From Amphiscolops sp. MND2022 (taxonomy: Eukaryota), in NCBI GenBank assembly GCA_964187785.1, contig OZ076409.1, forward strand, positions 68,698,001-68,762,000: a DNA stretch of 64,000 nucleotides. The letters run 5' to 3'. Shown one piece after another: positions 2,260 to 60,800 of this stretch. How positions within the stretch are numbered: the stretch's first letter is position 1; each line of letters opens with the position of its first letter. The position numbers and the translations under genes were made by a program. The notes below the pieces were generated by a model that was not told the origin of the DNA, did no database searches, and saw only the letters and a program-made list of their open reading frames with translations.

Positions 2260-5200
2260 CTTCAAAAAAAGTTCATCAAGACCAAAAATCGTTGTCCAAT
2301 AGCTGTTTATGATGAAATAAATGCGTTTTTTTCTGAAAAAAGACCTAAAAATGGCAAAAAAACAAAAAATTTTACGTTTTTCAAAGTATTCACGCATTTT
2401 CGTCAAATTTTTGACAGACTTTGTGGATTGGATGGTTTTGAGGGGTCAACAAGGAAAGATATGGTTGTCCAGTAGTCGTATTTGAAGAGTTTTTTTCTTT
2501 TTTCAAAATGAAAAGGTCTCAGATTGACACTAAAACAGACAAAAATCTCAATTATTTCCAATGTTAAAAAAATTTAAGCATTTTTTCCAACTTTTCGACA
2601 AACTTTGTGGATTCAAACGTTGAAAAGGGTCAACTAGGAAGAAATTTGTAGTCCAGTAGGCTTTTCCGAAGAGTTTATTGCAATTTTCTAAGTGACATTG
2701 TCTCAAATTGACACCGAAATTGAGAAAAGTCCAAAATTTTTCCATGTTTCAAAGATTTTGTTTGCGTTTTGGTTAGAGTTTTGACAGACTTCGTAGATTG
2801 GAAAATTTTAAAAGGTCAAAAAGGAGAAACTTGGCTGTCCAGTAGTCTTTTATGAAGAGATAATTGCAATCATCTGAATGAAAAAGTATCAAATTGACAC
2901 CATAAAACACAAAAATCTCAAAACTTTCCAATTTTCAAAGACTTTATGCATTTTTTTCCAAATTTGCGACAGACTTCGTCAATTGGAACGTTGAAAAGGG
3001 TCAACAAGGCAAGAATGTTTTGTCCAGTATGCTTAGAAAACAGATAAATGCGGTTTTGTAAACGAAATTGGTCCGCAATTGACATTAAAAGAGACAAAAT
3101 TTCGAAATCTTTCAGATTTGCACCCTTTTTGTTCAATTTTTGTCAAAATATTGATACGCTTCGTGGACTAGAGTGTTGAAACGCCTAAAGCACGAGCGAA
3201 TTTGTTGTTTTGGTGAGCTTTCGTTACCAGGTAAGGTCAATTTGTAAAAGCAAAATCCCTCAAATTGACCTGAGTTGTATAAAAAATTGAAGTTTTTGTC
3301 GTTTTTGATGCATTTTTTGTACATATTCCCAAAAAATGTCGATCTAAGTTCTAACCCAAACATTTCAGTAACGAATGAAAGAGCTTTGCAATAAATTTTT
3401 AAATATAAGATTTCAGTGTTTTGCATCAAAAACACTCCAAGATGACTCCAAAGCAGCCGAAAAGTTTCAACAACTTCGTTGTTGTGCAACTTGTGTACTT
3501 TTTTGAATCGTTTTGGTCTCAGAGTGTCCACAAGCGTTCAACAAAGACTGAACTCATAATCCAATAGGCATATAAAGGAATTTTTGCCGACTTCGGTTGG
3601 AAACTGGCTGAAAAGTGACCGCAGAAAGTGGAAAGTTTGGAAACTTTTGTCGATTTCCGGCATTTCCAGAGGTTTTTTAGTTGAGATTAGAAAATTTCGG
3701 CAAAGTTTTATTTCTGGTAAAATTTCGGTTTTTCAAAGTTTTTACGCATTTTTTGTCAACTTTTTGACAGCCTTTGTGGTTTTGAATGTTTTAAGTGGTC
3801 AGCAAGGAAAAGATTGGTTGTCCAGTAGTCATTTTCGAAGAGTTTTTTTTGCAAAAGGAAAATGTCTCAAATTGACACCAAAACAGACAAATATCTCAAT
3901 TATTTCAAATTTTAAAAAAATTCAAGATTTTTCCAAATTTTTGATCGACTTTGTGGTTTCAAACGTTGAAAAGGGTCAACTAGGAAGAAATCTGTAGACC
4001 AGTAGGCTCTTCCGAAGAGTATATTGCAGTTTTCTACGTGACAATGTCTCAAATTGACATCGAAATTGACAGTCCAAAACTTTTCCGATTTTCAAAAAAA
4101 ATTTTTGCGTTTTTGGTTGAAGTTTTGACAGACCGTGGATTGGAATGTTTCAAAGGGTCAAGAAGGAAAAAGTTGGTTGTCCAGTAGTCATTTATGAAGA
4201 GATAATTGCAATCTTCTCAATGAAAAAATGTCAATTTGACACCAAAAAGACAAAAAACTCAAAACTTTCCAAGTTTCGAAGTTTTTATGCTTTTTTCCGA
4301 ATTTCCGACAGACTTCGTCAATTGGAACGTTGAAAAGGGTCAACAAGGCAAGAATGTTTTGTCCAGTATGCTTAGAAAACAGATAAATGCAGTTTTGTAA
4401 ACAAAATTCGTCCGCAATTGACATCGAAAAAGACAAAATTGCGAAGTTTTTCCAATTTTTACTCTTTTTGTTCAATTTTTGTCAAATTATTGATACTCTT
4501 CGTGGACTAGTGTTAAAACGCCTAAAACACGAGCAAAGTTGTTGTTTCGGTGAGCTTTCGTTTCGAGATAAGTTCAATTTGTAAAAACAAAATCCCTCAA
4601 ATTGACCTGAATTGTTAAAAAATTTGAATTTTTTGTCGTTTTTGATGCAATTTTTGTACATATTCCAGAAAAACTTCGGTCGAAATTCCAACCCAATTGA
4701 CTTAGTAACGAATGAACGAGGTATGCAATAATTTTTTAAATCGAAGATTTCCGTGTTTTGCATCAAAAACACTCCAAAATGACTCCAAAGCAGCCGAAAA
4801 AATTCAACAACTTCGTTGTTGTGCAACTTGTGTACTTTTTGAATAGTTTTGGTCTCAGAGTGTCCTCAAGCGTTCAACAAAGACTGAACTCATAATCAAA
4901 TAGGCATATAAAGGAAAATTTGCAGACTTAAAGTTGGAAAATGGCTAAAAAGTGACCGCAGAAAGTGGAAAGTTTGGAAACTTTTGTCGATTTCCGGCAA
5001 TTCCAGAGATTTCTTAGTTGAGATTAGAAAATTTCAGTAAAGTTTTATATTTGGTAAAATTTCGGTTTATTAAACTTTTTACGCACTTTTCGTCAAATTT
5101 TTGTCAGACTTTGTGTATTGGATTGTTTTAAGTGGTCAGCAAGGAAAAGATTGGTTGTCCAATAGTCGTTTTCGAAGAGTTTTCTTTGCAAAAGGAAAAT

Positions 5201-7720
5201 GTCTCAAATTGACACCAAAACAGTCAAATATCTCAATCATTTCAAATTTTAAAAGATTCAAGATTTTTCCAAATTTTCGATCAACTTTGTGGTTTCAAAC
5301 GTTGAAAAGGGTCAACTAGGAAGAAATCTGTAGACCACTAGGCTTTTCCGAAGAGTATATTGCAGTTTTCTACGTGACAATGTCTCAAATTGACATCGAA
5401 ATTGACAAAGTCCAAAATTTTTCCGATTTTCAAAAAAATTTTTTTTTGCGTTTTTGGTTGAAGTTTCGACAGACCGTAGATTGGAATGTTTCAAAAGGTC
5501 AAGAAGGAAAAAGTTGATTGTCCAGGAGTCTTTTATGAAGAGATAATTGCAATCTTCTCAATGAAAAAGTATCAAATTGACAACAAAAAGACAAAAAACT
5601 CAAAACTTTCCAAGTTTCGATAATTTTATGCTTTTTTTCCGAATTTCCGACAGACTTCGTCAATTGGAACGTTGAAAAGTATCAACAAGGCAAGAATGTT
5701 TTGTCCAGTATGCTCAGAAAACAGATGAATGCAGTTTTGTAAACAAAGTTTGTCCGCAATTGACATCGAAAAAGACAAAATTGCCAAAGTTTTCCAATTT
5801 TTACTATTTTTGTTCAATTTTTGTCAAAATATTATTACTCTTCGTGGACTAGTGTTAAAACGCCTAAAACACGAGCAAAGTTGATGTTTCGGTGAGCTTT
5901 CGTTTCGAGATAAGTTCAATTTGTAAAAAAAATCCATCAAATTGACCTGAATTGTTAAAAAATTTGAATTTTTTGTCGTTTTTGATGCAATTTTTATACA
6001 TATTCCCGAAAAACTTCGATCGAAATTCCAACCCAATTGACTCAGTAACGAATGAACGAGGTATGCAATAATTTTTTAAATCGAAGATTTCCGTGTTTTG
6101 CATCAAAAACACTCCAAAATGACTCCAAAGCAGCCGAAAAAATTCAACAACTTCGTTGTTGTGCAATTTTGTTCTTTTTGAATAGTTTTGGTCTCAGAGT
6201 GTCCACAAGCGTTCAACAAAGACTGAACTCATAATCAAATAGGCATATAAAGGAATATTTGCAGACTTCAGTTGGAAAATGGCTGAAAAGTGACCGCAAA
6301 ATGTCGAAAATTTGGAATCTTTTGTCGATTTCCGACATTTCCAGAGAGTTTTTATTTGAGATTAAAAAAGTTCAGTAAAGTTTTATATTTGGTAAAATTT
6401 CGGTTTATTAAAGTTTTTACGCACTGTTCGTCAAATTTTTGTCAGACTTTGTGAATTGGAATGTTTTGAGTGGTCAACAAAAAAAGACTGGTTGTCCAGT
6501 AGTCGTTTTCGAAGAGTTTTTTTTGCAAAAAGAAAATGTCTCAAATTGACACCAAAACAGACAAATATCTCAAATATTTCTAATTTTGAAAAAATTAGGA
6601 ATTTTCCAACTTTTCGACAGACTTTGTGGTTTCAAACGTTGAAAAGGTTCAACTAGGAAGAAATCTGTAGTCCAGTAGGCTTTTTCGAAGAATTTATTGT
6701 AGTTTTCTAAGTGACAATGTCTCAAAGTGACACCGAAATTGACAGATGTCCAAAATTTTTCCAATTTTCAAAAATCATTTTTGCATTTTTGGTTGAAGTT
6801 TCGACAGACCGTGGGTTGGAATGTTTCAAAGGGTCAAAAAAGAAAAAGTTGGTTGTCCAGTAGTCTTTTATGAAGAGATAATTGCAATCTTCCGAATGAA
6901 AAAGTATCAAATTGGCACCAACAAAAACAAAAATCTCAAAAGTTTCCAAGTTTCGAAGATTTTATGCTTTTTTCCAAATTTCCGACAGACTTCGTCAATT
7001 GAAACGTTGAAAAGGGTCAACAAGGTAAGAATGTTTGGTCCAGTATGCTTAGAAAACAGATAAATGCAGTTTTGTAAACGGAATACGTCCGCAATTGACA
7101 TCAAAAGAGACAAAATTGCAAAATCTTTGAGATTTTAACTCTTTTTGTTCAATTTTTCTCAAAATATTGATACTCTTCGTGGACTACATTGCTAAAACGC
7201 CTAAGGCACAAGCAAATTTGTTGTTCCGGTGAGCTTTCGTTAAGAGATAAGTCCAATTTGTGAAAGAAAAATGCCTCTATATGACATGAATTGTCAAAAA
7301 AGTTTTTGTCGTTTTGATGCAAGTTTTGTACATTATTGCTAAAAATTTCGCTCTAAGTTCCAACCCAATCAACTCAGTAACGAATGAACGAGCTGTGCAT
7401 TAACTTTTGAAAGAGAAGATTGCAGTGTTTTGCATCAAAAACACTTGAAAATGACTCCAAAGCAGTCGAAAAATTTGGAAACGAAAACTTCGTTTTCGTG
7501 CAACTTGTGTACTTTTTGAATCGTTTTGGTCTCAGAGTGTGCACAAGCGTTCAACAAAAACCGAACTCATAATCAAATAGGCATATAAAAGAATATTTGC
7601 TGATTTCTGTTGGAAAATGGATGAAAAATGACCGCAAAAAGTCACAAATTTGGAACCTTTGGTCAATTTCCGACATTTTCAGAGAATTTTTATTTCAGAT
7701 AGGCGAACTGCGGTAAAATA
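2260..7720. repeat. Higher-order tandem repeat: about 4 copies of a ~1337-bp unit that itself contains ~185-bp subrepeats
   Basis: Marker ggtctcagagtgt..caagcgttcaacaaa recurs near 3521, 4857, 6196 and 7534. Subrepeat marker ggtcaac..ggaa...tgtccagtag...aaattgacac recurs near 2443, 2627, 2813 and 2998, and at equivalent positions in each unit. Confidence 0.9.
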
Positions 7721-39800: not shown

Positions 39801-42800
39801 CCCCCCTGCATTTTTTTGATGTTTTGCGACAGAATGGATGTTGAAAAACCTCAAAGGGTCCCCCCTTTCAGTTTTTTTCGGCATTGTGAGATTTTTTCCC
39901 GAAAATGAAAAAAAAAATTTTCTTCAATTTTTTCATGTTTTGCGACAGAATGGATGTTGAAAAACCTCAAAGGGTCCCCCCTTTCAGTTTTTCGGCATTG
40001 TGAGACTTTAGCGCGCCACTCGGTCCATTTTTTTAGTATGTAATTTTTTCAAAAAAAAATTTTTCGAAAAATTTTCGATTTTCGAGTACTGTAAAAGAAT
40101 ACTTGACACTTGGAAGTCTTTTTGCTATTTTTGAGCCTTGGATATGGCGCCGACTTGGGCCGGTCCCGGCTTGTTCGTCTCATTTTCTGGATTTTGGAGA
40201 CATCACGTCAATATTCCGTGAAAAGGCGCCGAATGCTATGCAATATCGTCTGAAACCCTTATTAAAGGGTTTGCTTTACCATACAATCAGCTGGTGCGTT
40301 AAGAATTTGCAGAAACTAAATGTGCCAAATTTGGCACATTGGTCAAGTTAAGGTTAATGATGATGAAACGTATCCAGCAGGACAAACGCACTCTATTGCA
40401 AAACTTGCAAGCAAATAGCATTTTAGAGGCTCATTCAAATCTTCAGTTCAAAAAAGACGGAGTACTGAATTCACAAGGTGGTTATGTAGGAATGAGTTTG
40501 AACCCATACTGAAACGGGACAAGGCTGAGTTGTTAATAGAAGCGTGTTTTTATCGCAGCGACTTATAAAGTTTGAAATTCTACCCCCTCAAATGTTTTTT
40601 GACATTATCCATTTTATTACACATTTTTTATTAGAAGGCCCATGTTTCATTAACCAGTCAAACGGTAATGCGAATGATCAAAGTGAATGCCTCTCAAATG
40701 CTTAAAAACCTGTAATACGATGTTGTGAAAAGTAACCTTGGCCTGAGTAGCTTTGGATTTGTTGCGCAAATTAGCGCTCGAGTTCAGATTAGAAGTGCGC
40801 CCCCTAGTGGGGCTATGACGAGTTACTAGATTGGCGGAGGAGACACGATTGCACAGCCTCGTTGTCGAGCGGGGTCTGTTGTTATTGTTCACAGACATCA
40901 ATTATAACCCATTAAATATTAAATATCATCTTATAATTTCATGATCTGATAATGATAACTATCTTAACAATTAGAAGTGAATAAATCAAAATATAACTAT
41001 ATTTAGATAACTAAGTCAGTAATAAATAAAAGCATAAGGAAATAATGAAGAAATTATAAGTTTAAGAATAACAAATTCGGAAATATTTGTCGCTTTTAAT
41101 CGTCATTTCAAAGCAAATTCAAAAACTCTGTTGGCCGTATATACGTAAGTTGTTCCGGAAAAAAAACAAAATCGATCACTTTTCTGTAGAACATACTATC
41201 GTGCAGAACTCCAACCAAAACGTTGAATTAGAAACGTTTAAAATGGTCTATAATGTTCATAGAGTATAATTCATTGCGGTATTTGTAGTACAAAAAACGG
41301 TGACTCATAGTCATAAAGGTGGTGTAATTCCGGCCGTCGCTGCCAGACTTACATTTATGCATTGATTGCGTAGAAAAAGCGGTAGGAACTAAACTGTATA
41401 CATTTTCCCCAAACATTCATTCCACTTTTTGCGCTGGAAAAAGGTATAATCCAACATTGCGACCAAACGAACAATACAGCACTGTACTCGCGCCAGCCAG
41501 TATGCGTTGCATTGTAAAAATGAAATATTACGTAACACTGTATTTACGTTCATTTTACTACAACTTATTTTAAATCATTGGCAGGTGCACTTATATTTTC
41601 CTCCAGTACGTGTCATCTCCCCACCCCTCCCCATTTCAATGCTTCAAAGAGGTACAAATATGAATAGAAGTAGTCAAGATTATGTGCCGACAACAGTACG
41701 TTAGATTTTTGTAAAAAAAACATCAAAAATCAATATTCCAAAATGGTTTTTATTTGATACTGGAGATCAACATACAGGTTTTTATGAAATTGAATGAGAC
41801 AGACAACAGGGAACAATACTCATAATAAAAAGAGGAGAATGCTAAAGCATGATTTCATTTTCAGGGTAAAAAATCATCAGGATAGCGAGTGATCTGTTAT
41901 TACCTGGTCTACATCAACTCTAATTTCCTCGTAAATCACCTAAAAACCAAATCAATCATTTTTCATAAGGCAAAACCAAAAAAGTTAGTTGAACCGAGTC
42001 GCGAAATTTGATCTGCTGCATTTATCAAGTGAAAGTAAGACACGGTCTAGCTCATTCAGCACCGATTGAGAAAGAAGGAACTTTGTAAAGAAAATGGTTC
42101 TAAGATATGTCGAGAGAAGAGACAGCCCTATGAGTATATGCTAGGCTGGCCAATGACATAGTGCAATAGAATCTTGAAGGCAGTAGAAACAATAATTGCT
42201 TAAGCAACTGATTGAGTACAAGCAAACCTTGTCGCTCTTGCTTGAAGAGACTTCTTTGCTTCTCATGGGAGACGCAGATCGGCCGCCTTCCTCCCTCATG
42301 CTCTTCTTCACCAGTTTCTCATTCTCTTTCTTGTAGAAGTCTCGTTCTTGCTCAATCGACTTCAGCATCTGGTTCAACCTGAAAAATAATTTCAATGTAC
42401 ACTACAACACTGCATCAAAAGTTACCATTTTAGGATATTTCGTTCACTGTTTCCAGTTAAGTGCCGTTTTCTTTTAAAATACATGGTCTCTAACGCAGGA
42501 GACTTCGATTTTTTAAACACTTGCGTTGCGTGAAAAGACGATTAAAAGGGAAATGAAAATGGATAAAATCATTTTAATAATAGCAAAGATATGAAGCTGT
42601 CAAATAAACAATTCACTGTCCCATATATCAATTTGAGTTCCAAATTATTTAGTCGAATTATTTAGGATCAAAAAATAATTCCGGAGAAAGTTTCAAACTG
42701 AAACTGGTTTCACTCTTACAGGTCGGCCCTCGTCAAAACCTGCCGCTGGTGAAGTAGTGACACGTCACTCCGGTTCGGCGAGTAGTAATCGAATTCCCGT

Positions 42801-45800
42801 TCCTAATATATAAAAACCCTAAATTTAAGCATTTTTTCCAAAAAAATCGATAAAATTGGTGTTTTTTCACTATTAAAAAATAAAAAAATTTAAGCTCGTA
42901 AAATCATTAAAAAATTAATCTTTTTTCACAAAATACCAATCAAACCATCTAAAAATCAGCCTTTTTTAACAACTGAAAAATTAACAAAATAAAAATCGAT
43001 GCACAAATTTTCCAAAGAAACATTTGTCACAAACCAAAATTGAACTAACCTCCATCGACGTATAATAGACTTATTACCACATCGTGAAGAAAAAATAAAT
43101 ACTTACCAAATGCGTTCAAGTAGAAAACACAAGTGTCCAAATTGAAAACGAGTTTTTTTCTTCATTTTTACCCATTAAAAAATTACATATAAAAATTCAT
43201 GAACTCATTTTTCATTATAGATAAATTCACGGATGCGCACAAGTGGACACCACAACTGTTGGAAAAATTACCACCATATAAATTTCAAACAGAATTTCAC
43301 GCACCAGACGGTCGTCTGACCTTGAGGTGCATTCGGAATGCACCAAAATTTCATTTTTCACTTTTCTCTCTACAGTCACAGCAAACAGCATGGCCGAAGA
43401 AATGAAACTGACAAAGAGACTTTTTCCATTCGGACTTTCACTCTTAAACATGTAGAGATTACTAATAGATCAGGAAAAAAGCCATAACTCAACGAATATT
43501 TGAGTTACAACAAAGTATAATATACCATTGAAAAGGTCTTGACAAGGGTTATCTATCTAGATACAATTAAAAAACCTAGACTGAAACTATACCATCTGAA
43601 ACTTCGAAAAACCTGAAACCCTTAAACAAGTAGAGATTATAAAAGTTCAACATATCACAGTGTATGATACATCATTGGAAAGGTCATAAAAAAGAAATCA
43701 TAGATGGTGATTATCTCCATGATCGGACATCCTCAGCTGAAACTATACCATCTCAAACCTGAAACCCTTAAACATGTAGAGATTATAAAAGTTCAACATA
43801 TCACAGTGTATGATACATCATTGGAAAGGTCTTGAGTTGGAGATCACAGATTTTGAATATTTTCATGATTGGGTACCCACAACTGAAACTATACCATCTC
43901 AAACCTGAAACCCTTAAACATGTAGAGATTATAAAAGTTCAACATATCACAGTGTATGATACATCATTGGAAAGGTCTTGAGTTGGAGATCACAGATTTT
44001 GAATATTTTCATGATTGGGTACCCACAACTGAAACTATACCATCTCAAACCTGAAACCCTTAAACATGTAGAGATTATAAAAGTTTAAGATATTACCATG
44101 TGTGATACATCATTGGAAAGGTCTTGAGTTTCTGATTACAGATTATAAAAATTTTCTTAAATGAAATATTTATCATTCAAATCTGTGGCAAATTTTAATA
44201 CCTTACCACCACAAAATTAAAATATTTTTCACCAATTTTTTGAAAAATTATAATTGAAAAATTTTTAATTAAACTATTTTTTCTTTAATAAATAGAAATG
44301 GAGAATTGTAGTATTTGTAATTTAAATTATAAAAAAGCTTTCAAGTCTGATCATCTAAAATCAGTAAAACATCTTGAAAAATTAAATCAATATTATTGTA
44401 AAAAAATGTAATTTATATATGCCTATCTCAGATAAAAGTTCTCATTTAAATTCAGATGAACATAAAAACCGCATCAATAAAATATGGTGTGAAGATTGTA
44501 GTAAATATATATCTGATACAACAAGACATTTCCAAAGTGAAATTCATTTACAAAACCGTCAACAAAACGGTATGCAAAGCCAGCGAAGCTGTATTACAGA
44601 TTTCGGTACAGCTTTGCTGCCCTCCGGTAATGGAGTAAATATAATTGTGAATGAAAACACATACAATAAACTGAAAATAAATCCAACTGAAAATCTTGAA
44701 AATCGTATAAAAGAATTAATAAGTAAAAGGTACTTTCCTCGATTTAAATATCAATTGAGTTATCTAGCTAAATTTTCAAAAATAATCAATGGAGAAGAAG
44801 TATTTAAAAGATGGATAAAATCAGATCTAATATATAATCATACACAACAAGATACTCATAACACATTAATACAGAAATTAGATGATGAACAATTAGAAGG
44901 ATCAGGTTTTGTGTTTCAAGAAATAGAAGAAGTTATATTAGAAATATATAAAGTTAAGGATATTCAAGCATCTTCATATATTGAGTTACCACCAAAATAT
45001 AAAAACAGCCAATCAATAATAAATATAAAAAATAATGATCAATTTTGTTTTCTATGGTGTATATTAGCATATTTATTTCCAGTTGAGAATAATAAAAATA
45101 TAACATCGAGTTATTCAAAACATTTTGATAAATTCAACCTAGAAGGTTTAGAATTCCCTATGAAAGTCAAAGATATTCCCAAGTTTGAAAATTTAAATAT
45201 CGGACTGTTTATAAATGTATTCGAACTCACAGGAAATGTGCTAACACCAATCCACGTTAACAAAAATTACTTACAACCACAAATAGATTTATTATTATAT
45301 CAAAATCACTATTGTTTAATAACAAAGTTGCATTGTTTAATAAATAAAGATTCACACATGAAACATGTATGTAGAAGATGTTTAACAGCATTTAGTTCAC
45401 AACCAGTTCTAATTGATCATATGCAAAGATGTATAAAACAACAACCAACTAAAATCACATTCAGTTGGAAGAATCAGTTAAAGTTCGAAGATTATTATAT
45501 GAAAGTTTCTGTACCAACAAGAGTATATGCTGATTTTGAATGTATCAATCAACCTCAAAATACTCCCAACGTGTTATTCAAACAAATTCCAATTGCAGTA
45601 GGATATTATGTAATTTCACCATTCGGAAATTATTACTATTCATACTTTGGAATAGATTGTACCACGTGGTTTGTAAATAGAACGTTAACTTTAGAAAAAA
45701 TTGCAAATAACTATTTTAAAACAAACTTAGAATTACAAATAACTCCTCAAGAGGAAGAATCATTTCAACTTGCAGAAGAGTGTTGGCTTTGTGAAAATCC

Positions 45801-48800
45801 ACTCGATGATACTAAGGTTAGAGATCATGATCATCTAACAGGAAAATACAGAGGAGCAGCTCATAATATATGTAACATAAATTGTAAACAAAGGTCATCA
45901 AGTTTTGTTCCTATATTTTTCCATAACTTTTCGGGGTATGATTGTCATCTTATATTTGAAGAACTTTTAACCGAAGCATACAATCAGAATTATAATCCAA
46001 CAATAATTCCAAAATCACTGGAAAATTATGTTAGTGTACAAGTAGGTTGTTTGAGATTCTTAGATTCATACCGATTTCTTTCTTCCAGTTTAGATAAATT
46101 AGTTAAGAGTTTAGATAATTTTCCTATCATGAAATTGGAAGGAATGAGTGATGATTTATTCAAAAAGAAATTAGCTTATCCTTATGAATACTTAAATCTT
46201 GATAACTTTCAGGAACCATTAAATCTAACCAAAGAAGATTATTGGTCAACATTAACACAATCCTATCCATCAGATGATGATATAAAAAGAACCCAAGAAT
46301 TAATTGATAAAAATAAAATTGAAAATGGAAGAGAATTAACAATGTTATATTTAAAAATGGATGTTCTTCAATTAGCTGATGTATTTGAAAACTTTGTGGA
46401 AAGTTCTACACGAGAATATAAAATTAATCCTTCGTATAGTTACTCTCTACCTGGTTATACATGGAAAGCAGGATTAAAGTTGACTAATATGAAATTAGAT
46501 TATATAAAATGTAAAGAATTATTATTACTTTTAGAAAACAATATACGTGGAGGAATTTCAAGTGTTATGGGAGATCGTCATGTGCAATCTGATGAAAATA
46601 AACAAATCTTATATATCGATGCAAATAATCTATATGGATGGGCAATGAGTCAATACCTTCCTACTGGAGACTTTAAAAAGATAAAGCTCTGTTGTGAATA
46701 TGATTCTGTACTGATGAATGAAATTAAAGAAGACATTTTCAATACACCAGATGACAATGAATTTGGATACTTTATAGAATGTAACTTAGAATATCCAGCT
46801 GAAATTAAAGAAAAAACAAAAAACTTTCCTTTTTGTCCGTATCAAACAAAAGCAGATCCAGACTTATTCTCAGCTTATATGAATAATGTAAATCAACCTA
46901 ATTACAAACCAACATCAAAACTTATGTGTGATGTAACCAATAAATCGAAATATATGATACATTATAGGATGTTTAAGTTTTATCTTAACCAAGGGATGAA
47001 AGTAACGAAGATACATACTATCTATAAGTTTAAACAAAGTCCATGGTTAGGTAAATATATCGATCATAATACTCAGAAACGCACAGTAGCGAAAACAAAC
47101 TTTGAAAAGGATCTTTATAAATTAATGAATAATGCTTTCTTTGGTAAGACTATGGAAAATGTAAGAGATAGAACCAATCTAGAATTCATTGATCATTCTC
47201 AAATAGATCAAATAATAAAAAGACAATCCAAGTTAAGTTTCAAAGGCATTGTGGATCATTATTCTAAGTTTAGTGTGTACAAGTTTGATAAAGAAAAACA
47301 GTCTTTGATAAACCAATTTATTTGGGTTTTACAGTACTAGAACTATCAAAACTATTAATGTATGAATTTTATTATAACAAATTACAACCATATTGGAAAC
47401 AATCCATACAACTACACTACATGGATACAGATTCTTTCATACTTAGTTTTGATACAAACCACCAAGAACTAATAAACTTTTTACAAGAAAACAAAGATGA
47501 ATTTGATTTCAGTGAATTGGATAAATCACATGAATTATATAATCCTATTAACAAAAAAGTTATAGGAAAAATGAAAATTGAAACAAGTCCAGTTTTGGTG
47601 TTAGATACCTTCACAGCATTACAATCAAAGTCATACTCTTTTAGTTATTATAATAATAATAATAAGAATAATAACATTCAAAAAGCGAAACAAAAAGGAA
47701 TACAAAAAGCTCCCAAATGTGAAGAATATCAGAATTCATTGTTTAATTCAGAAACATCAAGTTCTACAAATATATCAATTAGATCTAATTTACACAACCT
47801 TACAGTTGAAAAACAAAACAAACTAGCTTTGAATCCTTTTGACGATAAACGTTTGTATATAAATCCAATACAAAGTTTACCATGGGATAAACACACACAA
47901 AAAGGTGATTGTCCTTGTATATATTGTTTGAAATTAATTGGTTTGTATTATAAAGATTTAACTATAAATGTTGACGGTAGCAAGAAAACAGATGAAGAAA
48001 TTTATTTCAATGTTTGGAATTGGAAACAAGCACTCACCCATCAACAACTTGTGAAGTTGATAAGTGATCGAGCACATGTTTTATAAAAATAAATATATTA
48101 TTTTATAATTATTATTATTTATAAAAAGAAATTTATTTATCATATCAGCAAAGCTGAATTATTATATTTTTTAAATAAGGAATCTCTGATATCATTTTAT
48201 ATTATTTTTAAATTATTTTATTTATTTACTGAAAGAGCTTTGCTTATAATAAATCAAAATGCCTTTGTCCATCACTACTGATACTTATCAGTTTAGGTGT
48301 TAGGACTAGGGCATAAGCTATATAGTCTGCTACATCAATGGCTGCATTAAATATAAATTCTAATCAAATAGGTTGACTCCCGATGGGGTCTTTTTGTTTG
48401 GATAAATCAAATACATAAAAATTATAATTTGATCTGAATTTGTGCAAATCAATAAATGGATTGAGTAGATTAGTTTCACTTTTTAACAAATAGAAGTTTT
48501 CAATTTCACTGTATGCTTGATCATATTTGTCTCTATCATAATCACATTCTATTCCATCATCGGGATATTTTTCTGATCCTATTTTACAAACTGCATTTGA
48601 AACAGGTAAACGATCAAATATTGCATTATCATGTGTTTGTGAATCAATTTTATTTCTAGCTTGAAAAGCAACAATTACAAAAGTTGGTGTTGATTCTCCA
48701 CTATTACCTAATTCAAATGTCCAATTATTATTCGTGTTAACATCTTTTCTAAATACAATCCGTTCCATGTAAAATAATTCAGTTGGATCTTTGTCTAATA

Positions 48801-51800
48801 TTTGATCCATCACGAGTTGTTGGTTTTCCATTGATGGTATGTAGTGTGGAATGTACCAGATGTCTTTTATATTTATTTTTGCAGCATCTACACCATTGTC
48901 CCTTATAATAGGATCATTATTATTATTTCGTTTTAATGTGAGACTGTAACCCAATCCATAAGTTATTTTTTCTTGATCAGCGAATCCAAACAAGTCTTTT
49001 AGTTTTATTCTCACAAAAAAGGTTCCTTTCTCTGTCTTATTGTTAGTTAGTTCTTGTCTTCTGATAGTAATACTTTCTTCAAACCCATACATCAATTGAG
49101 AAGTTTGTTGAGTGCTAGTTAAAAGTTTATACATCAATGAAATTGGGTGTAGATTATCAACTTTTTCTAAATGTTTACCTGAACTAGTTGTCAGCTTAGC
49201 TTCACTAAATAAAGCAACGGGTCCAAAATTAACTAAACTTATTTGATCACCATCTGCGTATCTTGTATCATCATTTTTAAGAACTTCAAATTCTAATGAT
49301 ATGTATGAATTTTGTAAACAAATATATGCATCTTCTCTTGGGAAGATGATGGAAATGTTTGAATTATTATTGTTGATTGTAGCTAAACTACTAGGTGAGT
49401 ATTTAATAAAATCAATTTTATGAATAGGTTTATCCATAGCATATTTATTTTTCAAAGAAAATTATTCCATTTATATAGAAAAAAATATTCATTTTTTCTA
49501 CAAATCTTCGGTTTGTAAAAGAATAAATATTCATGATGATGATTTAAAATTTATACTGATTTTATTTTTACTAAATAAATTTATCCTAAAAAAGTAAACT
49601 CAGAATTGAGTTTAGTTTTATTTGTTTTATATAGATCGTAAGTTTGTTTTAATTTGTTGTATTCACTCAGATCAATTTTATTATCTTCTAAACATTTTGA
49701 ATGTAGTTTTTGGTAGTCGTGTAGTGTTCTACCAGCAAGAGTATATTTTTTAATATTGTGTTGTTCTTTTCTCTTCAGGTACTCTCCAGCAATTTTACTG
49801 ATTATACATAAACCTGCACCTATACCACTTGCTATAGGTACAACAACAAGTCCAACTCCTGTGACACTTAACGTGACACATGTTGATGATACTGCTAGTA
49901 CTGAAACTCCATCAATAGATTGAATTAAACCGTTTATAATTTTATATATTTTAGATTTCTTTTTATACTTTTTAGCTTCATGATTATAAAAATTTTGAAT
50001 ATCTTTTATATTTTGAATTGAATTATTAAAACTATTTATTTCTTTTAATCTAAGATCAAGATTCTGATCTTGTTGTAAACATGGGTACAATTTTTCACTC
50101 ATTTATTTTAAATAAAAACTTAATTTTAGTTTTCAAAAAGTATGAAATTTATCTCAGTATCGGTTAGTTTCATTCTATATTTAAGGTCAACTATATCTTT
50201 GTATTCATCTTTCTTTAAGCACTTCACGATATCTTCTCGCGTTGAATAGTCTAAATCAGATAAATAATACACACCATCTGATGTCTTTATTTCTTTTCCG
50301 TATTTTTCCAACAAGTATTCATCACTAAAATATAAGTACTCATTAAAGATTTGGTCTTTATTTTCAAATGAGTCAAACAATCCTTTGTTGTACAATAGTT
50401 GTATAACATCTTTGATGGTTTGATTTTTACATTTTTCCAATTCCGAAATAAGGTTTCTCTCAAAATGATTACGTAAAATGGTTTGTTGTTCTTCCACTAA
50501 CTTGGCAGCATCCAAAATTATTTCTTTTTTCTTTTCTAAAAATTTATTTTTAATATCTTGTTCTAAATATTTCAAATTTATTTTTATATCTTCTATACTC
50601 TTGTTAATGTCTAAGAATAACTTTGCATTGACTACGATTTGTGTTTCACCGTTGTCAAATATAATTTCTTGTAGGTTACCGAAGGTGCTTTGCATATCAA
50701 AATTTTCTAAAGTATTAGACAAATCATTAAGTTTCAAGTTAATTAATTTGGTTTGTGATTCCAATTCTTTTTCTAAATTCCCAATCTTGTCTTTTTGTAA
50801 GCTTTCGGCACTATAACCAAATTTATGAATTGACATTATTTATTTAAATATAATTACTCATAACGATGGAAAACATTCATACTTTCTAACGTTTTGTTGT
50901 TAGATTCAAAGTTGAATACACTTCTTAAAAGTTCTTGTTCATAATACTTTCCTTCTATTTGTTCGTTGTTTTCATCTACTAAACCATACGTAACTGGGTT
51001 AGTTGGATTAATTTTATGTATTTTAAAAAGTTCTCTATTCCAATTTGTTGTATAACCTTTACTATATAAATTGCGTTTATCAGGAACTCTTACATAGTCT
51101 CCCACTTGGAATTTGGGTTGTTTACGCAAAGCGCCTTCGGTGTTTTTAAACTTATTACGCAGAGCGCCTTCGGTATTGTTAGGTATTAGTTTTTGATTAG
51201 TTGACATTTCAAATGGTGTCATTTTTATTGTTCCATGCACACGATTATTATATTTTTCCATAGCAGCATCAAGGTGATTCAACCAACAAGCTTTACCTTC
51301 AATATACATTGGTTTTTTTTTTATTAGATCTAATAATGTTCTATTGAAGCGTTCAACAAAAACTGCTTTTAAATCTGAATTAGTTGAATAAATTTGAATT
51401 TCATTTTGATTAAAAAAATCTAAAAATGTTTTATTATAAAACTCTTTACCTCTATCTGACCAAATTTTATCAGGTTTTCTTTTTGCTTTTTCGATAAGAC
51501 TTTTTAATGCAGTTGTAGTACTTTTTCCTGATTTATCTTTGAGGGGAATTGCCCATGCATATTTAGTATGATTGTCAATTATTGTAAAAATGAACTTGTA
51601 GTTTTTGTTGTATTTGCTTAAACTTGAGCGATCGAACTTGCTTAAATTAAATCGATACTCCAACACTCATCTTTATAGTGAGTTTGTATTTGAATTCTTT
51701 GAAACTTCTTGATTACAGGAGAGAAAATTTCTTTAGCAATTTCTTTCTTCTTTTCACTCATTTATTTCCTAATAAATGAATAAAAATTTTTATATAGGTT

Positions 51801-54800
51801 TATTATGTGTAATTTTTATTATAGTTTTATATATTTATTGGTATTATATTAAACCTAATTATTATAAAAAATTATACCAAAAACTAAAACAATTCAAGGG
51901 ATTTAAATATTCTCATTTACAGCGAAGCTGCCCTCCGGTAACTAACAAAGAAGAACAAGAACTTACTCCACCAAATACAAATACAAATTGCCATATGTTA
52001 ATTTATGGTACTAGTGGATCAGGTAAGACTAGTTTCCTGAAGTATTATTTAGATCAAACTAAAACAAATTTTATAGTATTCGGTAGAGATGAGACTGAGT
52101 TTAAAGATAATTATATACCTTTGTTACAGTTAGAAAATATTGAAATAGAGAAACTTGCTAATAGAACTATAATTTTAGATGATGCAGGAGCATTCAAACA
52201 ACTCAGAACTAAAGTAGAAGACTTATTTCGGTTTGGTAGACACAATAATATACAAGTTCTATACCTTGCTCACTATGCAAAGGATGTTCTCCCAATAGTG
52301 AGAGAGAATTGTTTTAAATTATATATCACAATAAATAATCCAGATAGTTTCTTTGAAACCATAATACAAACTTATTCAATCAAAGAAGATCTCAAATGGA
52401 AACAATATCGTAGTCAGTTAGAATTTGGTGTAATTGAATTTGATACTAGATCACAAAAGTATAAAATACTCAGTCAAAAGTATCAACTAATCTACGATAC
52501 AACTAAACATAAATGGAGTCCTGAAGATTATGTAAAATATGAAAGTTATTTCTTTACAGGTGAAGAATATAATAAACTTAAAATATTCCTAGAAGATATG
52601 TCAGATCAAACAATTGAAATAACACCTTTTAATGTAGCTTTTTATTATGTATATTATTGTAAACAAAATAAAATCAAAGTAAATGAATCTAAAATAGAAA
52701 ATTACGTTGAACGCATGCAACAACCACTAATTTCAGATCAACTTAAAGAGGAATTTAAGGAAATTATAATTGATCAAGCAATCAGGTTCAGTAAAAGTAA
52801 TTTAAAAATGGGTCTGATTTCTTAGTAAAAAATCACTAAGCAAATTCACTAAGAGCATATATTTTTCACTAAGCAAATAAGGTTACACTTAAAACATCAT
52901 GCTCTTAGTGAATTTGCTTAGTGATTTAGTGATTTTTTACTAAATAAATGAAGTGTTTAATTTGTGGAAAAAGTAATGAAAAATCTGTCTGCTCCGATTG
53001 TGAGAATAAAAAAAGATGTAAAGTGTGTAACATACTGAAAACAACAAATGGTACAAATATAAATTGGTACAAATATAGAAACGGTAAATTGTATAGTACA
53101 TGTATAGAGTGTTTCAATAAAAAAGTAAAATGTGAATTCTGTAATAAAGAATTCAATACAACTTATTTATCAAAACATTTAAAAAGATGTAATATCAATC
53201 ATGATAATACAAATACCGAAGGCGCTTTGCGTAATGAAATTATAAATCATAATGAAAATCATGATAATAATAATTATACAAATAATATTATTACAAATGA
53301 TGATACTGATAATAATGATATTATGTTCACCGGAGGCCAGCAAAGCTGTAATCGAACATTGATAGTTGGTCCATCATTTTGTGGTAAGACCCATTTGTTA
53401 TTAAACAAATTACAATTAATTCGTTTAGATAATCCTGAACAAAAGATATGTATCATTACGAGGAGTCCGGAACAATACAATAAAATTGAAATAGAAGATG
53501 TTTCAGTGGAAGAAGATTTAGGTGATAAAAGTATTCAAGATTTTCAAAATTGTTGTGTTGTATTTGATGATATGTTAGACTCCAATCAGAAATTAATAGA
53601 TCCATTTTTTACTAGGGGAAGACATAATGATCTGGATGTTTATTATTTATCACAGTCATATTTTGATTTACCTAAAAGAACAATTAGAAACAATAGTAAT
53701 ATTATAATTTTATTTCAACAAACATTGAAAGATGTAGAACACATTTATAGAGACATAGCAGGTTTTGATATGTCTAATGATGAATTCAAAAGTTTATGCA
53801 GAGAAGCATGGCGGGATAATTATAATTATTTATTAATAAATAGGTTAGAAGATAAAAATGGTAAAAAATACATGATATGTAATGAATCCAATCTGCAATA
53901 CCAGATATTTAATCCACAAACTGATCCTTTTTAGTAAATGTGCTTATAAGACCGAAGGTGCTGTGCATGTTTTGATGTTGATTTGTTGTAATGCATTGGT
54001 ACTGTAATAATTTATCTGCAATTGCTATAATTTGTTCATTAAGCATAGGGTTATCATTTCCTCCTACTTTTTCAAAATAAAGTAGTTTTAATTGATCTAC
54101 AAGCTCATCTGGATCAGATGGAAGAAAAATAAAATTTAATCCACTTCCCAATTGGGATTGTTGATCTCGATATGTGTATTGATTAATCAAATTTTTAATG
54201 AAATAATATCTCTTTGATTTTTTATCTCCATAATTTAGATCATATTTCATATCTTTTAAAAAATTATAAATTAGCTTCTCGTTTTGTATTTCTTTATCAA
54301 GCTGTGTATAGGTTATAAAATATGAAAGATCTGGATTGTTTAAATTGTACGTGTTACCATTCTCGAAAGTCATTGTCGAACCTTTGATTAATACTTGTTG
54401 AGGATTAGTAATAGGGTTAATTGTGAAAAAATTGGAACTTCCTTCCACGGGTTCTAAACTAAATTGACTTTTGTTGTTGTCATTAAGCAAATTAGAAACT
54501 GTCTTAACGATACTAGAATCAACTGTATTTGAATTAACTAAGTTAGTAAGAACTTGATTATTACGGTTAGAAATTTTATCATATTCTTTAACTGATTTAT
54601 GTAATTTTTTATTAAGAGTATTACTCGATTCTTGTATTGCTCTAGTTTGATCTTGTATTGCTTGTGTTGTAGTTTCTGTAGAATTTCGTAGTGCTTGTAT
54701 TTGCTTTTCGGAAAGTTCTTGTTGTTTACTCTGTTTTTCCGTTACGGGTTCAAAAACTTCTTCCATATCATAATGAAAGTCTTGCTTCCCTAGTTTCTCT

Positions 54801-57800
54801 TTTAATCTTTCAGCTTTCAAAAAAGATTTTGATTCTTGCAATTTTTTAATTTTTCTAAATCATCTCGATTATGAATTGAATACATAATTTATTATTCATA
54901 AAAAATAATATTTAACTTACAGCAAGGCTGTAAATCAATGAATTTTACCCAAGTACAGGCCTTTTCCTTGATGAACAAATTTTATAATATCAGGAGCAGT
55001 TGCTGCTATCATTCGAGGATTTTTACTTGCTGCTGCAGTTCCAATATTTGCTGCTAGCTCTAATGCTCTTCCAGGATTATTGAGTATTTTCTTTCCAACA
55101 TTCTTGGCTGCCGAGCCCAAATGTTTAAAAAAATTACCCAATCCTTCTGCTTGTATTGTTTGATCTGATACAATAAGTGATTTATTTCTTTTACAAGAGG
55201 AACAAATACCTCTTAATAATTTAACAGCTGCTCCTGTTTTTTTATTTTGAGTAATATCTCCACGAATATTTATGGTAGCGGAATAATGTTTTCCACCAAC
55301 ACAATATGAATTATTTTTAAATTTACTAAAGCTCATTTCTTAGAAAAAAAATTTTCATTTTTTCTTCAGCACAAACTTTCAGTTTGCAAACTTTTAGTTT
55401 GTAAACCTTTGGTTTGTATATATATTAAATCTTGATGATTTGAATTGTAAATGCTAATGTCTCCCCGTTGAAATCAACTGGATTATGGTTGGAATCTTCT
55501 AAGAAAAATTGAATACTATCTAACCTTGTTTTGTTTATTTTTTTATACAAAATAATATTGGGTTCTTTTATAATTTTATATCCGGGAGGAGCACTAAGAT
55601 TAAATGAAAATAAAATTTGTTCTCTAATCCCATTAACAATTGAACCATCTACACAATCACATTTCAGATGAACTTTGTCTGTGGTTGTTATCATAACTGG
55701 TTTTTCTGATATATGAGTTCCTTGTATATAGTGTGTATTTGTGAATCCTAGAAGTTCATTTAATTTTGAATTAAAATAAATGGGATTAGAAGTTGTTAAG
55801 ACTGATTTCATTGATATTGTATCTGCTTCAATGTTGAATTCAAATTCAAAATCACTATCAGAAAGTTTTTGTTTCATAATTCTATTTATATCAATTAATT
55901 CGTATACTTCTGGTGGTAATTCAATTTCAACGAAGTCATTTTCAATTCCAAATTCAGGAATAATAATTGTTTTATCTTTAATATTTTGATTAATTTGATT
56001 AATTGTTTTCTTTAGTTGATCAAAGTCTTTTTCGATAAGTTTCTTATTTTTAGAATAACTATCAACCATAAAGGTATTAATTTTTTTTACATCAGAGATT
56101 TTATATAAATACTCAACATTCATTACTAATTGAGTGTCAACGTTTAATGATTTGAGTTGTTCGTCTTTTAGAAGGATTTTAAGTTTATTATTTTTTTCAG
56201 TAATGTTATATATGGTGTTGTATACTTCTAAACTTGTTACTCCCATCATCCATTGTTCAGGCAATTCCAAAGGAATATCAAATGAAAAAGATTCTTTTTG
56301 TTTATTCATTTTAAATTCTAAAGTTTCTTGTGGTTTGGATAAGGTATTTTCAACAATATCCAAATTAGATTTTGCAATACTCAATAAAAGAGATTCTTTT
56401 TTATCATAGGTTACAAAATTTGATAGATCCATTTATTAGGAGAAAAATTGTTTAAATCTATTTGCGGATATCTTATTTATAAATTCTTGGTTTTGTTTTG
56501 ATAATTTCTTTTTTGGATTATTTTTTTCTATTACTTTCTCATCAAATTGATTCTCATTGGTATTCATTGGTTTTTGAAATATTTTAAATTGAGCTGAATA
56601 AATATTAATTTTCTTCATTTAAGAATTATAAATTTTGATAGTATAAGTTTAAAACTGCATTTTTGAAGCCTATTATATTTGTGAGATATAACACATACAA
56701 ACAATAAGCTGCACAGTAACTGTCGTCTTTCTGGATTTGATATTCTGAATAGATACCTTTTTTAATGTGATTAAGTATATTTAGTGGTGGTGGACAGCCA
56801 TATGAATCAAAATAAAACTCGTTAACAAACATAACCCAATGTGTTCCTTTAGTTGGATGTAAGTTAACTATACCACTGGTGGTTATAAATTTATCATCTC
56901 TCATATATATTCCACAAGATGTGTTCATGAGTTTTAAGATTTCTTTTATTTCTACATTGGAAGTTGCTTCATTTTTTAATCTATATTTATCAACAAATTC
57001 TTTGAATGATAAATAATTCATTTAATAGTTATTTTTCCATGATTATATCTTGGTCAATGAATTTTCCATTGGAAAAACTTGTTCATCGATTTTTATTTTG
57101 TTAAATTTTTAGTTGCGAAAAAAGGCTAATTTTTAGATGGTTTGATTGGTATTTTGTGAAAAAAGATTAATTTTTTAATGGTTTTACGAACTTAAATTTT
57201 TCTTATATATTAGGAAGGGGAATTCGATTACTACTTTATTAAGTGAAAAGACGTGAAAAGACGATTAAAAGGGAAATGAAAATGGATAAAATCATTTTAA
57301 TAATAGCAAAGATATGAAGCTGTCAAATAAACAATTCACTGTCCCATATATCAATTTGAGTTCCAAATTATTTAGTCGAATTATTTAGGATCAAAAAATA
57401 ATTCCGGAGAAAGTTTCAAACTGAAACTGGTTTCACGCTTACAGGTCGGCCCTCGTCAAAACCTGCCGCTGGTGAAGTAGTGACACGTCACTCCGGTTCG
57501 GCGTAATAAATATGGTGATAAATATTGATCCTAGATAATTTCAGGTACTATTTGATCCTAGATAATTTGGCAAAATTTTCGATCTTACATAATTCGATTC
57601 TGCACAGCAATCCCTTCAATTTAGCCCCAATTATTGCCACAGCATTACAACGTCTTCAACATAAACCGAGTTTGATTTCAAGCTATATTGCAAATATGTG
57701 GGTTAACAAAACAAACGTGCTACCTGGTAGGAGACACAGATCCGTTCGCCTGTCCAGGTTTGCCGCCTTTCTTCAGCCTCATCTTTTCTAGCTCCGTCAA

Positions 57801-60800
57801 TAGATTTCGCTCTGAAACAGATTTTAACTAACCTACTTAGATACTTTTTAGTCGGCGCTTCATGAAGTGAAACGCGACTATACTAGTGACGTTTCTTCAA
57901 TCCACACGAACTGACCAAAATAGTTCTTAAAAGTTCTACGAAACTTTAAGGTGTCAAATTGGACCATTTGGCCCAAGGAACTTAACCAAAAGTGTTGTTC
58001 CGTTTTTCAGCGCAACATACAATACCGGGCAAGACTGTAGGGTCCCCCTTTCAGTTTTCGGCATTGTGAGACTTTTCGAATTTTTTTTCACTAAAGGGTC
58101 CCCTGCAATTTTTTTGATGCTTTGCGACAGAAGTGTTGAAAAATCCAGCGTGCCAATTCGGTCCAACTTTTGGGTTTTTCGGGTACTGTAAGAGAATACT
58201 TGACGCTTTGAAGTTCTTTTGCTTTTGTTGAACCTAGATATGGCGCCGAGTTATGCCGTTCCCGGTTTGTTCTTGTTAACACTTATACCAAACCAGGGAC
58301 TTACCATTTTTGGACAATTCTTCAATTCGCGCTTGTTGTTGAGCTTTTGTCTTTTCAGCTCTAGCTAGCGCTTGCTCGGCCTTTTCAAGGTCGGACAATT
58401 TAACATTTCGATCTCTTTCGGTCTTCTCGAGCCTCTTCTTGAGTTTCTCATTTTCCTAAAACCAAATTGAATACACTATTAAAACGATTAAGCTATAGTT
58501 TAAGAACATAGATCAAAGTTCTGAAATAGATTTTGTCAAACCAACTAGTTATGATCTAGTTCAGGCGGGTCGGCGCTCCGACCAAGTCTCAATTAGAACA
58601 GAATGTTCCAATACCCAAGATGATTACTTGGCTGATTTGAGACAAAAACATATAAATAGTGCCTCAAAATTTAAAGTGGGACCATCCGAGCTAATCTTAA
58701 GTGTTTCATTGCAGGGATTTTGGAGCCCTGTCTTCGACAATAGTATTGATCAAAAAACACGATTACCGAGAAATTCCGGAGATACAATAGGCTCAAATGT
58801 TCAGCACACTTACTGTTTGAGTAGCACTGCGATGCTTCTCCGTGATGCGAAGTTCAGTCTGACTTCTAAAGGCCTGGTCCTTGGCATCATGCACTTCTCT
58901 GTCGGCTATGTTCAAAGCATGTTCTTTTTCCAGACTTATCTTTTCAGCCAAACTGCAAAAATAGATATTTCATTCAGAAATTCCGAAGACAGAAAACCTC
59001 TGTTGAGCACAAAAGAATCTTTACAATCTGGTTCCAAATCGTGAACTGGTTTAAACTCTGCAAAAATGTTCTCGGAACGATTCTGTGAATGAAAAGTTTC
59101 AATTCTTTACATATAGTTTTCTGATGAAAACAGACAGAACCCAAACGATTCAAAAACAAGATGGACAACTTTGCTAACCCTTCGGTAATCTCCAACTCGT
59201 TGAGGATGTCGTTTCTTTCCTTGGTGGCACAGATGGCTTCGTGGGCTGCGTCATGTTTGCGCTCGATTGCAGCATTCAGCCTACTCTCCAAGTCTATTTT
59301 CTCTGTCTCCAGAGCTCTGTTCGCATTCTGCAGATACTCCACCTGAAATCCATGATTCAAGTTTCATGAAAATTAAATCCGCCAAAAGAAATTTGATCGA
59401 AAATCACAAATAGCAATCTCAAAGAGTTGACTCTCCAGAGTCCAATTGTTTAGAATCGAAAATTACAGCTGACAATTTCTGGGCCGATTTCATTTCCGAT
59501 CGAATTTTACAGGGCACTATAGCAATGGTATAATATGAATGAAATTTCCATTTTTTTCGATCCTAGATAAAATCAAGTCACAATTCGATCCTAGATAACT
59601 TTGCACATTTTTCAATCCTACATAATTCGACTTTGCACAGCAATCCCATCTCAAGTTCTGTGCTCGTGTTCTGCAAAAGGTCACAAAGTCAACTCAAAAG
59701 TTTACTTCGATAATGATAGTTTATGCATTTAATAATGTAACTTTTTAATCTGGACTAACAGAGTTGATTTTTTTCTAAAAACATGATCGCCGCATAACAC
59801 GGTAATGTTTCGCTCCGAAAGCTGGACAAAAACGGTGATACAAAAATAAATTGGAAATAAGTTTTCATATATTTTTTTTGGAAATATACACTACATTTCT
59901 TATTCGAATACTTGACCTACAAAAAAGACGAATGACCCTCTGACATTCTCAGGAAATCGAGCGCCACTGGAAAAATACATTTAGCTAAATTAAAATTTAA
60001 CACAAGCTTAAGCCCTCATTATATATTTTCAGCAAGCTTCATTCATCAAAAACAGTATTAAGGATGACGGTATTCTTCGCTTTTCATGTACTCAACTATA
60101 AAGTAAGACCCCGCAAACTTTTACATTTCTTATCGGGCTTGAAATTCTAATTTGTACTGAAAAGCAGCGTTTAAAGGCAGTATTTAGTTCAAGCGAATAA
60201 TTGTTTTGTAATTTACATTGCAATGGGATTAGCGGTGGTATATAAACGAGGGACGTATTTGGGGTCTTATTCTGCCAGCAGCTCATTTTCTGCAGTACTA
60301 CTCGGAGCTACAGCTCATCAATCACCTTTTTCTTTCACTTAGACTTTTCCTCTCATTGGACACATCACTTCAAGCAGTGAGTCATCGTAATCATGGGATC
60401 GAACGGAACCGCGGTCTTGTTTGATGAAGAATGGATGGAGACATTCTACGCGCCCGTAGAAGACGTAGAAAACATCCTTGTCGGCATCGTGCTCATTTTT
60501 CTCATCATTTTCGGGGTGGTGGGAAACACAACGTGTATCTACATTTTCTCGACGTAAGTTCACCTTTGAACTGAATTTAACATCAGATGGAATGTTTTTA
60601 ATTCGGAAAAAAAGTTAAATTTGTTTTTAACTGTATTCGCAAAACATCGTCATGTCTCAAAGCTTCAAAAGTTTCAGAATGTATACAAGGGGTGCATTTG
60701 AAATCTTACCATTAAAACATCAGCAGCGAATGAAAATTAGCGTGAAAGTGAAACCCAGACACTTGCTATAAAACGTTTGGGGGACCAAAAGCTTATACAT

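Follow-up and report, generated by a model that had tools for sequence, protein, structure and literature searches.

A Polinton insertion of Amphiscolops sp. flanked by a 252-bp duplication of host DNA, a recurrent insertion error of its family that probably reflects one-ended integrase joining

Natural errors offer one of the few views of how Polintons integrate, since these elements have been described chiefly from sequence (bioRxiv 10.1101/2023.08.22.554363). In the available text of the reports on Polintons with (AGT)2...(ACT)2 ends (PMC8097293; bioRxiv 10.1101/2023.08.22.554363), a 6-bp target-site duplication (TSD) serves as a filter or check, and copies with an aberrant flank could therefore be set aside. 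One such copy lies in the 64-kb window analysed here (positions 68,698,001 to 68,762,000 of contig OZ076409.1, assembly GCA_964187785.1, Amphiscolops sp. MND2022), where a Polinton with two intact termini is bracketed by near-identical 252-bp direct repeats of host DNA instead of a TSD. Coordinates at this locus are positions in the window, and the structure of the locus was read from the assembly alone.

For retroviruses, the fidelity of the TSD has been addressed previously (PMC2857682). According to the available parts of a study of aberrant retroviral integration (PMC5041404), insertion of only one end by integrase is followed by extension of the free 3' end, by a polymerase of the host, on templates close by, and the insertion is then completed by recombination. 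The resulting insertions carry one normal joint together with duplications of hundreds of base pairs, deletions or inversions, sometimes with several appended pieces, and the aberrant ends are often truncated. Retroviral DNA was almost never inserted in that study when integration was fully blocked.

The Polinton of the window starts with AGTAGT at 42781 and ends with ACTACT at 57235 (14,455 bp). It is preceded directly by one copy of the 252-bp repeat and followed by 16 nt of filler and then by the second copy (Table 1); the copies are identical at 251 of 252 positions, the sole mismatch being t at 42714 versus g at 57437. The hexamers beside the terminal inverted repeats (TIRs) are unequal, tcggcg on the left and ttatta on the right, and a 6-bp TSD is absent. 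This layout, coordinates and hexamers included, is real and agrees with a preliminary description of the stretch. The left joint has no filler, lost base or microhomology and cuts through a host repeat. At the right joint, an exact 10-nt tandem slip (57243-57252 / 57253-57262) is present, which bears out the earlier remark that the filler re-copies adjoining nucleotides. In addition, filler nt 1-13 resemble a candidate template at 42022-42034, a post hoc find for which an equal match was obtained by 2 of 400 shuffled 13-mers within 1 kb on either side.

The 252-bp repeat is duplicated host target DNA and no part of the element. A genome search with the 252-mer gave 40 scored matches among 92 candidates; full-length matches occur at this locus only, and the remaining 38 cover only part of the last ~140 nt. 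The first 112 nt had no match at any other locus among the 335 compared, and the 3' part comes from a host repeat, dispersed and with inverted arms, whose left fragment (42641-42780) is cut off by the left TIR. In 19 of 28 genomic copies this host repeat runs on past the point where the right copy ends, with homology to 57510-57625, and 0 of the 28 lead into a TIR; the native site was therefore the 252 bp followed by the downstream DNA, and the left TIR interrupts a host repeat. The reverse-strand motif that had earlier been likened to a host repeat is an inverted arm of the copy at 57364-57620. As well, the GC-rich hairpin once pointed out beside the left TIR folds no better than shuffled sequences (z 0.16 and -0.79) and belongs to the interior of the host repeat, where it is mostly imperfect; on these two grounds it was rejected as a signal. 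Pattern scans for the single-locus portion of the 252-bp repeat in metagenome contigs, and for the Polinton terminus in viral contigs, gave 0 matches each.

Two terminal patterns had 169 and 340 exact matches in the genome (509 termini; reversed controls 0), which indicates a young family of about 250 elements, or roughly 250 copies per Gb. A census was made of all formable pairs of the first pattern set and the first listed part of the second; its 117 rows, less four second copies of a duplicated end, represent 113 elements. A perfect 6-bp TSD flanks 102 of them, a TSD with one mismatch four and a 7-bp TSD one (by eye), and six are aberrant. In addition, 20 unpaired ends were followed for truncation and long duplication: 12 were resolved, all with 6-bp TSDs (by eye), the other eight had no resolved pair (two at N gaps, one past the 10-kb stretch, five with no far terminus), and none of the 20 showed a flank duplication. 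Altogether, 118 of the 125 resolved copies, which make up about half of the family, have a 6-bp TSD (114 perfect, four with one mismatch), one has a 7-bp TSD and six are aberrant (95% confidence interval (CI) 1.8-10.2%). Five of the 125 have long duplications (95% CI 1.3-9.1%); since four of these lie elsewhere in the family, the long flank duplication is a recurrent family error at ~4-5% and not the normal mode. The census selects intact termini, so truncated aberrant ends are missed.

Three of the four further duplications are direct: 42 bp with a 2-nt filler at C1:1929299; ~71 bp with a 2-nt filler at C4:54662723, where the left copy alone later received a ~480-bp insertion; and 116 bp without filler at C9:57078549, after which a 142-nt unit is perfectly re-copied. 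For the last, insertion into an older tandem pair plus a small deletion is an alternative. The fourth, at C3:363917 (363917-378255), is an inverted host duplication of 150 bp (149/150) that adjoins both termini exactly and could stem from copying through the opposite TIR. The sixth aberrant copy, C7:3281048, has flanks without homology within 10 kb, and its right end lies midway through a repeat, the left side having no trace of the upstream part of that repeat; this copy likely arose by deletion or rearrangement. All five duplications have their breakpoints within 0-16 nt of an intact terminus and at least one clean joint; the filler sits at the protease end of two elements and at the polymerase end of one. 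The long duplications have 2 mismatches in 635 aligned bases versus 4 in 708 for the 6-bp TSDs (p = 0.69, a comparison of low power), which would fit a common age, and the duplication presumably dates from the insertion event.

The TIRs of this copy measure ~236 bp (left) and ~167 bp (right), and their arms are 92% (133 nt) and 94% (36 nt) identical. The direct repeats are thus more alike than the TIRs, as had been observed earlier, and the argument once built on this carries no weight, because the median TIR divergence among copies flanked by normal TSDs is 3.6% substitutions (n = 106). At 5.9%, the 78th percentile, this copy is ordinary for the family, and TIR divergence was rejected as a clock. 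The TIRs differ by variable internal blocks and mixed subtypes even in copies with perfect TSDs, and identical TIR cores were found in 4 of 106; the family TIRs seem not to be homogenised ahead of insertion. Four of the 113 elements also carry a tandem duplication of 1.2-3.9 kb over one terminus and its host flank, 98.6-100% identical where aligned and of biological or assembly origin (C1:66240521/66244470, C5:74957460/74958713, C6:58772834/58776328 and C8:53214929/53216623).

We consider it probable, at roughly 65%, that the 252-bp repeat arose through one-ended integrase joining, with host repair copying nearby DNA onto the other end. Integrase would have joined the left end only; the free right 3' end would have primed on short templates, slipped once and copied 252 bp, and the copied right end would then have rejoined the chromosome through homology. 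An integrase-independent insertion with a large target duplication and templated end joining had been proposed before; the duplication stands, templated joining is likely from the 10-nt slip, and a one-ended integrase event is more probable than one independent of integrase, given how close to an intact terminus the duplications of the family end.

Several observations weigh against one-ended joining at this locus. A target profile built from 101 normal sites, which separated true from random sites (p = 7e-18), gave the left junction a score at the 53rd percentile among random sites and the 18th among true ones; the far end of the 252-bp duplication scored higher, at the 91st percentile of random and the 65th of true sites. 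The profile did not point out the integrase-joined end of this copy; among the other three direct duplications, it found a high-scoring end in two and none in one. Moreover, the right terminus shares at most 1 nt of homology with either candidate filler template, and filler nt 1-6 equal, in reverse complement, the hexamer that follows the right copy (local hexamer frequency 8e-4, a post hoc find), a match that one-ended joining would not predict. The aberrant end is also intact, unlike the frequently truncated retroviral ones, in a census that favours intact ends.

A further reading, which we offer tentatively, is a second, replicative mode of Polinton entry, in which one end is joined by integrase and the intact other end primes the copying of 40-250 bp of host DNA. 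The free end would perhaps be capped by the terminal protein and might be extended by the element's own polymerase; alternatively, it would fold to the opposite TIR and copy the first flank inverted. If this were true, about one insertion in 25 would end up flanked by a long host duplication, direct or inverted, and Polintons would be a steady source of local rearrangement hidden by TSD-based annotation.

It is unlikely, in our judgement, that a normal insertion came first and that one terminus was later re-cut, by attempted excision or one-ended re-transposition, and rejoined 252 bp upstream on the sister chromatid or homologue. Such a history would also put breakpoints exactly at a terminus, the reverse-complement hexamer that starts the filler resembles a retained 6-nt staggered joint, and the terminus-spanning duplications indicate that ends do rearrange in this assembly. 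However, the hexamer was not seen in the other direct-duplication cases, and by mismatch rate, at low power, the long duplications are no younger than the family TSDs.

Integrase-independent capture of linear Polinton DNA at a chromosome break, with repair duplicating 252 bp, appears decidedly improbable. It would account for the templated slip within the filler and for a left junction that did not score as a preferred integrase site, yet the left joint is free of filler, base loss and microhomology, joints of this kind occur at least once in every one of the five duplications, and the near-absence of retroviral insertion under an integration block (PMC5041404) speaks against it. An assembly artefact, in which filled and empty haplotypes were merged and 252 bp repeated, deserves very little credence. 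Four kb-scale near-identical duplications over element ends do exist in the same assembly, but the two copies differ at one base, the 16-nt filler matches neither flank and a haplotype merge would have retained the 6-bp TSD, absent here. Moreover, the 42- and ~71-bp duplications, one with its later insertion in a single copy, show that the class is biological.

That two Polintons inserted 252 bp apart on homologues recombined into a hybrid is hardly credible: the left and right TIRs are indeed of different subtypes, but mixed subtypes also occur with perfect TSDs (e.g., C2:95230712 and C5:28217486), two insertions within 252 bp are very unlikely at the copy density of the family, and no filler would be predicted. 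A mobile unit with a ~268-bp spacer between its TIRs and long-terminal-repeat-like terminal redundancy, the other explanation of the preliminary description, has the look of the locus in its favour and almost no likelihood, being refuted for the examined half of the family by the test proposed with it: 6-bp TSDs prevail, the 252-mer is unique to this locus and consists for one half of a host repeat that has been interrupted, the 1.2 kb next to each of the 262 termini compared contain no TIR-spacer-TIR junction, and the five pairs of these termini that share a flank each belong to a single element, with no flank shared by unrelated termini.

The element has the 13-25 kb size, TIRs, AG...CT termini, protein-primed DNA polymerase B (pPolB), integrase, capsid, ATPase and (likely) protease by which Polintons/Mavericks are recognised (Table 1); this copy lacks the 5-8 bp TSD that 119 of the 125 resolved copies have. 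It belongs to a Polinton family and is itself a non-canonical insertion. The polymerase is 86% identical to the relative P0078, which itself matches PF03175 at 8.7e-16; a Pfam scan of this copy's own polymerase did not find PF03175, and a PDB sequence search with it returned chance matches only. The protease open reading frame (ORF) had no Pfam match, and the minor capsid candidate by position, ORF 55425-56432, had no relevant one. The A32 ATPase is followed by another P-loop ORF, which has a zinc finger at its N-terminus (52948-53934, plus strand), and 146-bp units form a tandem array in the interval from the left TIR to the polymerase gene (43609-44163).

Table 1. Features of the Polinton and of its flanks in the 64-kb window
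Feature	Position	Strand	Remarks
Candidate template for filler nt 1-13	42022..42034	+	12/13 match
Left copy of 252-bp host duplication	42529..42780	+	Adjoins left terminus without filler; full 252-mer at this locus only
Left TIR, starts AGTAGT	42781..43016	+	169 exact termini of same type in genome
Protein-primed DNA polymerase B gene	44292..48086	+	Three pieces, two frame changes; tblastn versus relative P0001
Double jelly-roll major capsid ORF	48364..49437	-	PF21738, E 3.3e-17
rve integrase, stop-to-stop frame of 270 aa	50854..51666	-	PF00665, E 1.4e-11; no ATG ahead of core domain
A32-like packaging ATPase	51776..52825	+	PF04665, E 5.4e-7
Likely adenovirus-like cysteine protease	56626..57021	-	Atlas feature matches 0.93-0.97, including Peptidase_C5 clusters
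Right TIR, ends ACTACT	57069..57235	-	Lacks ~69-nt block of left TIR
Junction filler, 16 nt	57236..57251	+	10-nt tandem slip running into start of right copy
Right copy of 252-bp host duplication	57252..57503	+	Runs on into downstream host DNA
Dispersed host repeat, uninterrupted copy with inverted arms	57364..57620		Probably of the type of miniature inverted-repeat transposable elements

Coiled-coil-like ORFs that resemble exons flank the element on both sides, in minus-strand orientation. The earlier naming of this host gene as CEP135 was not confirmed, as Pfam gave no match above threshold and the Atlas matches were below 0.9. Between exons of the coiled-coil gene, on the opposite strand, a multi-exon 7tm_1 receptor gene (60381-62442, plus strand) was found, which we take from its motifs to be opsin-like. 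The window also contains a tandem array of ~1337-bp units with ~185-bp subunits (2273-7717). Elsewhere in the family, an internally deleted copy of 1.7 kb (C8:39491098-39492830) has both termini and a perfect 6-bp TSD and is a possible non-autonomous derivative, and three right termini lie ~140 bp apart at C3:40943890, 40944030 and 40944168. The targets show a weak symmetric bias family-wide, with C at TSD position 3 (41%) and position 1 (31%) and few C at -3 and -4.

The proportion of aberrant copies, 6/125, is a first fidelity figure for Polinton integration, taken from half of the family, and pipelines requiring a 6-bp TSD would lose ~5% of full-length copies. The locus represents neither a new integration mode nor a new element type. 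No earlier report of long host duplications around single Polintons was found in a literature search whose coverage left subscription journals largely outside; imperfect insertions are events of a known kind, and this one belongs to a class of elements for which that search gave no such report.

As far as the available parts of the cited works describe them, the Polintons with (AGT)2...(ACT)2 ends (PMC8097293; bioRxiv 10.1101/2023.08.22.554363) resemble the present family in size, termini, TIRs, gene set and 6-bp TSDs, whereas in this copy a 252-bp duplication and filler replace the TSD. The Caenorhabditis elegans eri-6/7 locus (bioRxiv 10.1101/2024.01.15.575659) likewise has direct repeats and rearrangements beside Polintons within a host gene; its repeats, however, are the element's own TIRs, attributed to recombination among several insertions, and here host DNA is repeated around a single element. 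More than 100 bp of host DNA is also duplicated by the non-LTR (long terminal repeat) retrotransposons Dualen (median 900 bp) and R9 (126 bp) (PMC9977147), in which widely spaced nicks in target-primed reverse transcription make long TSDs common or normal, whereas here they are a 4% exception in a DNA element whose stagger is fixed at 6 bp. The Mavirus-like EMALEs (PMC8547959) are also virus-like elements with an rve integrase and a variable TSD length; the TSDs given range over 1-9 bp, and the text available mentions none that measure tens to hundreds of base pairs.

The aberrant integration of HIV-1 and avian sarcoma-leukosis virus (ASLV) (Varadarajan et al. 2016, PMC5041404) shares with this locus an rve-type integrase, one junction that is clean, a large change of host DNA at the other end (duplication, inversion or deletion) and, putatively for this locus, appended templated segments. 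The retroviral cases were provoked with inhibitors, mutant integrases or a defective DNA end, whereas the present one is a natural germline Polinton insertion with both termini intact. Wild-type proviruses were aberrant in 0 of 184 cases (PMC5041404) versus 6 of 125 here (Fisher p = 0.004), in settings that are not like for like. By analogy, the error spectrum of the family looks like that of one-ended retroviral integration, and it supports a two-end strand-transfer step that may become uncoupled and is then rescued by repair.

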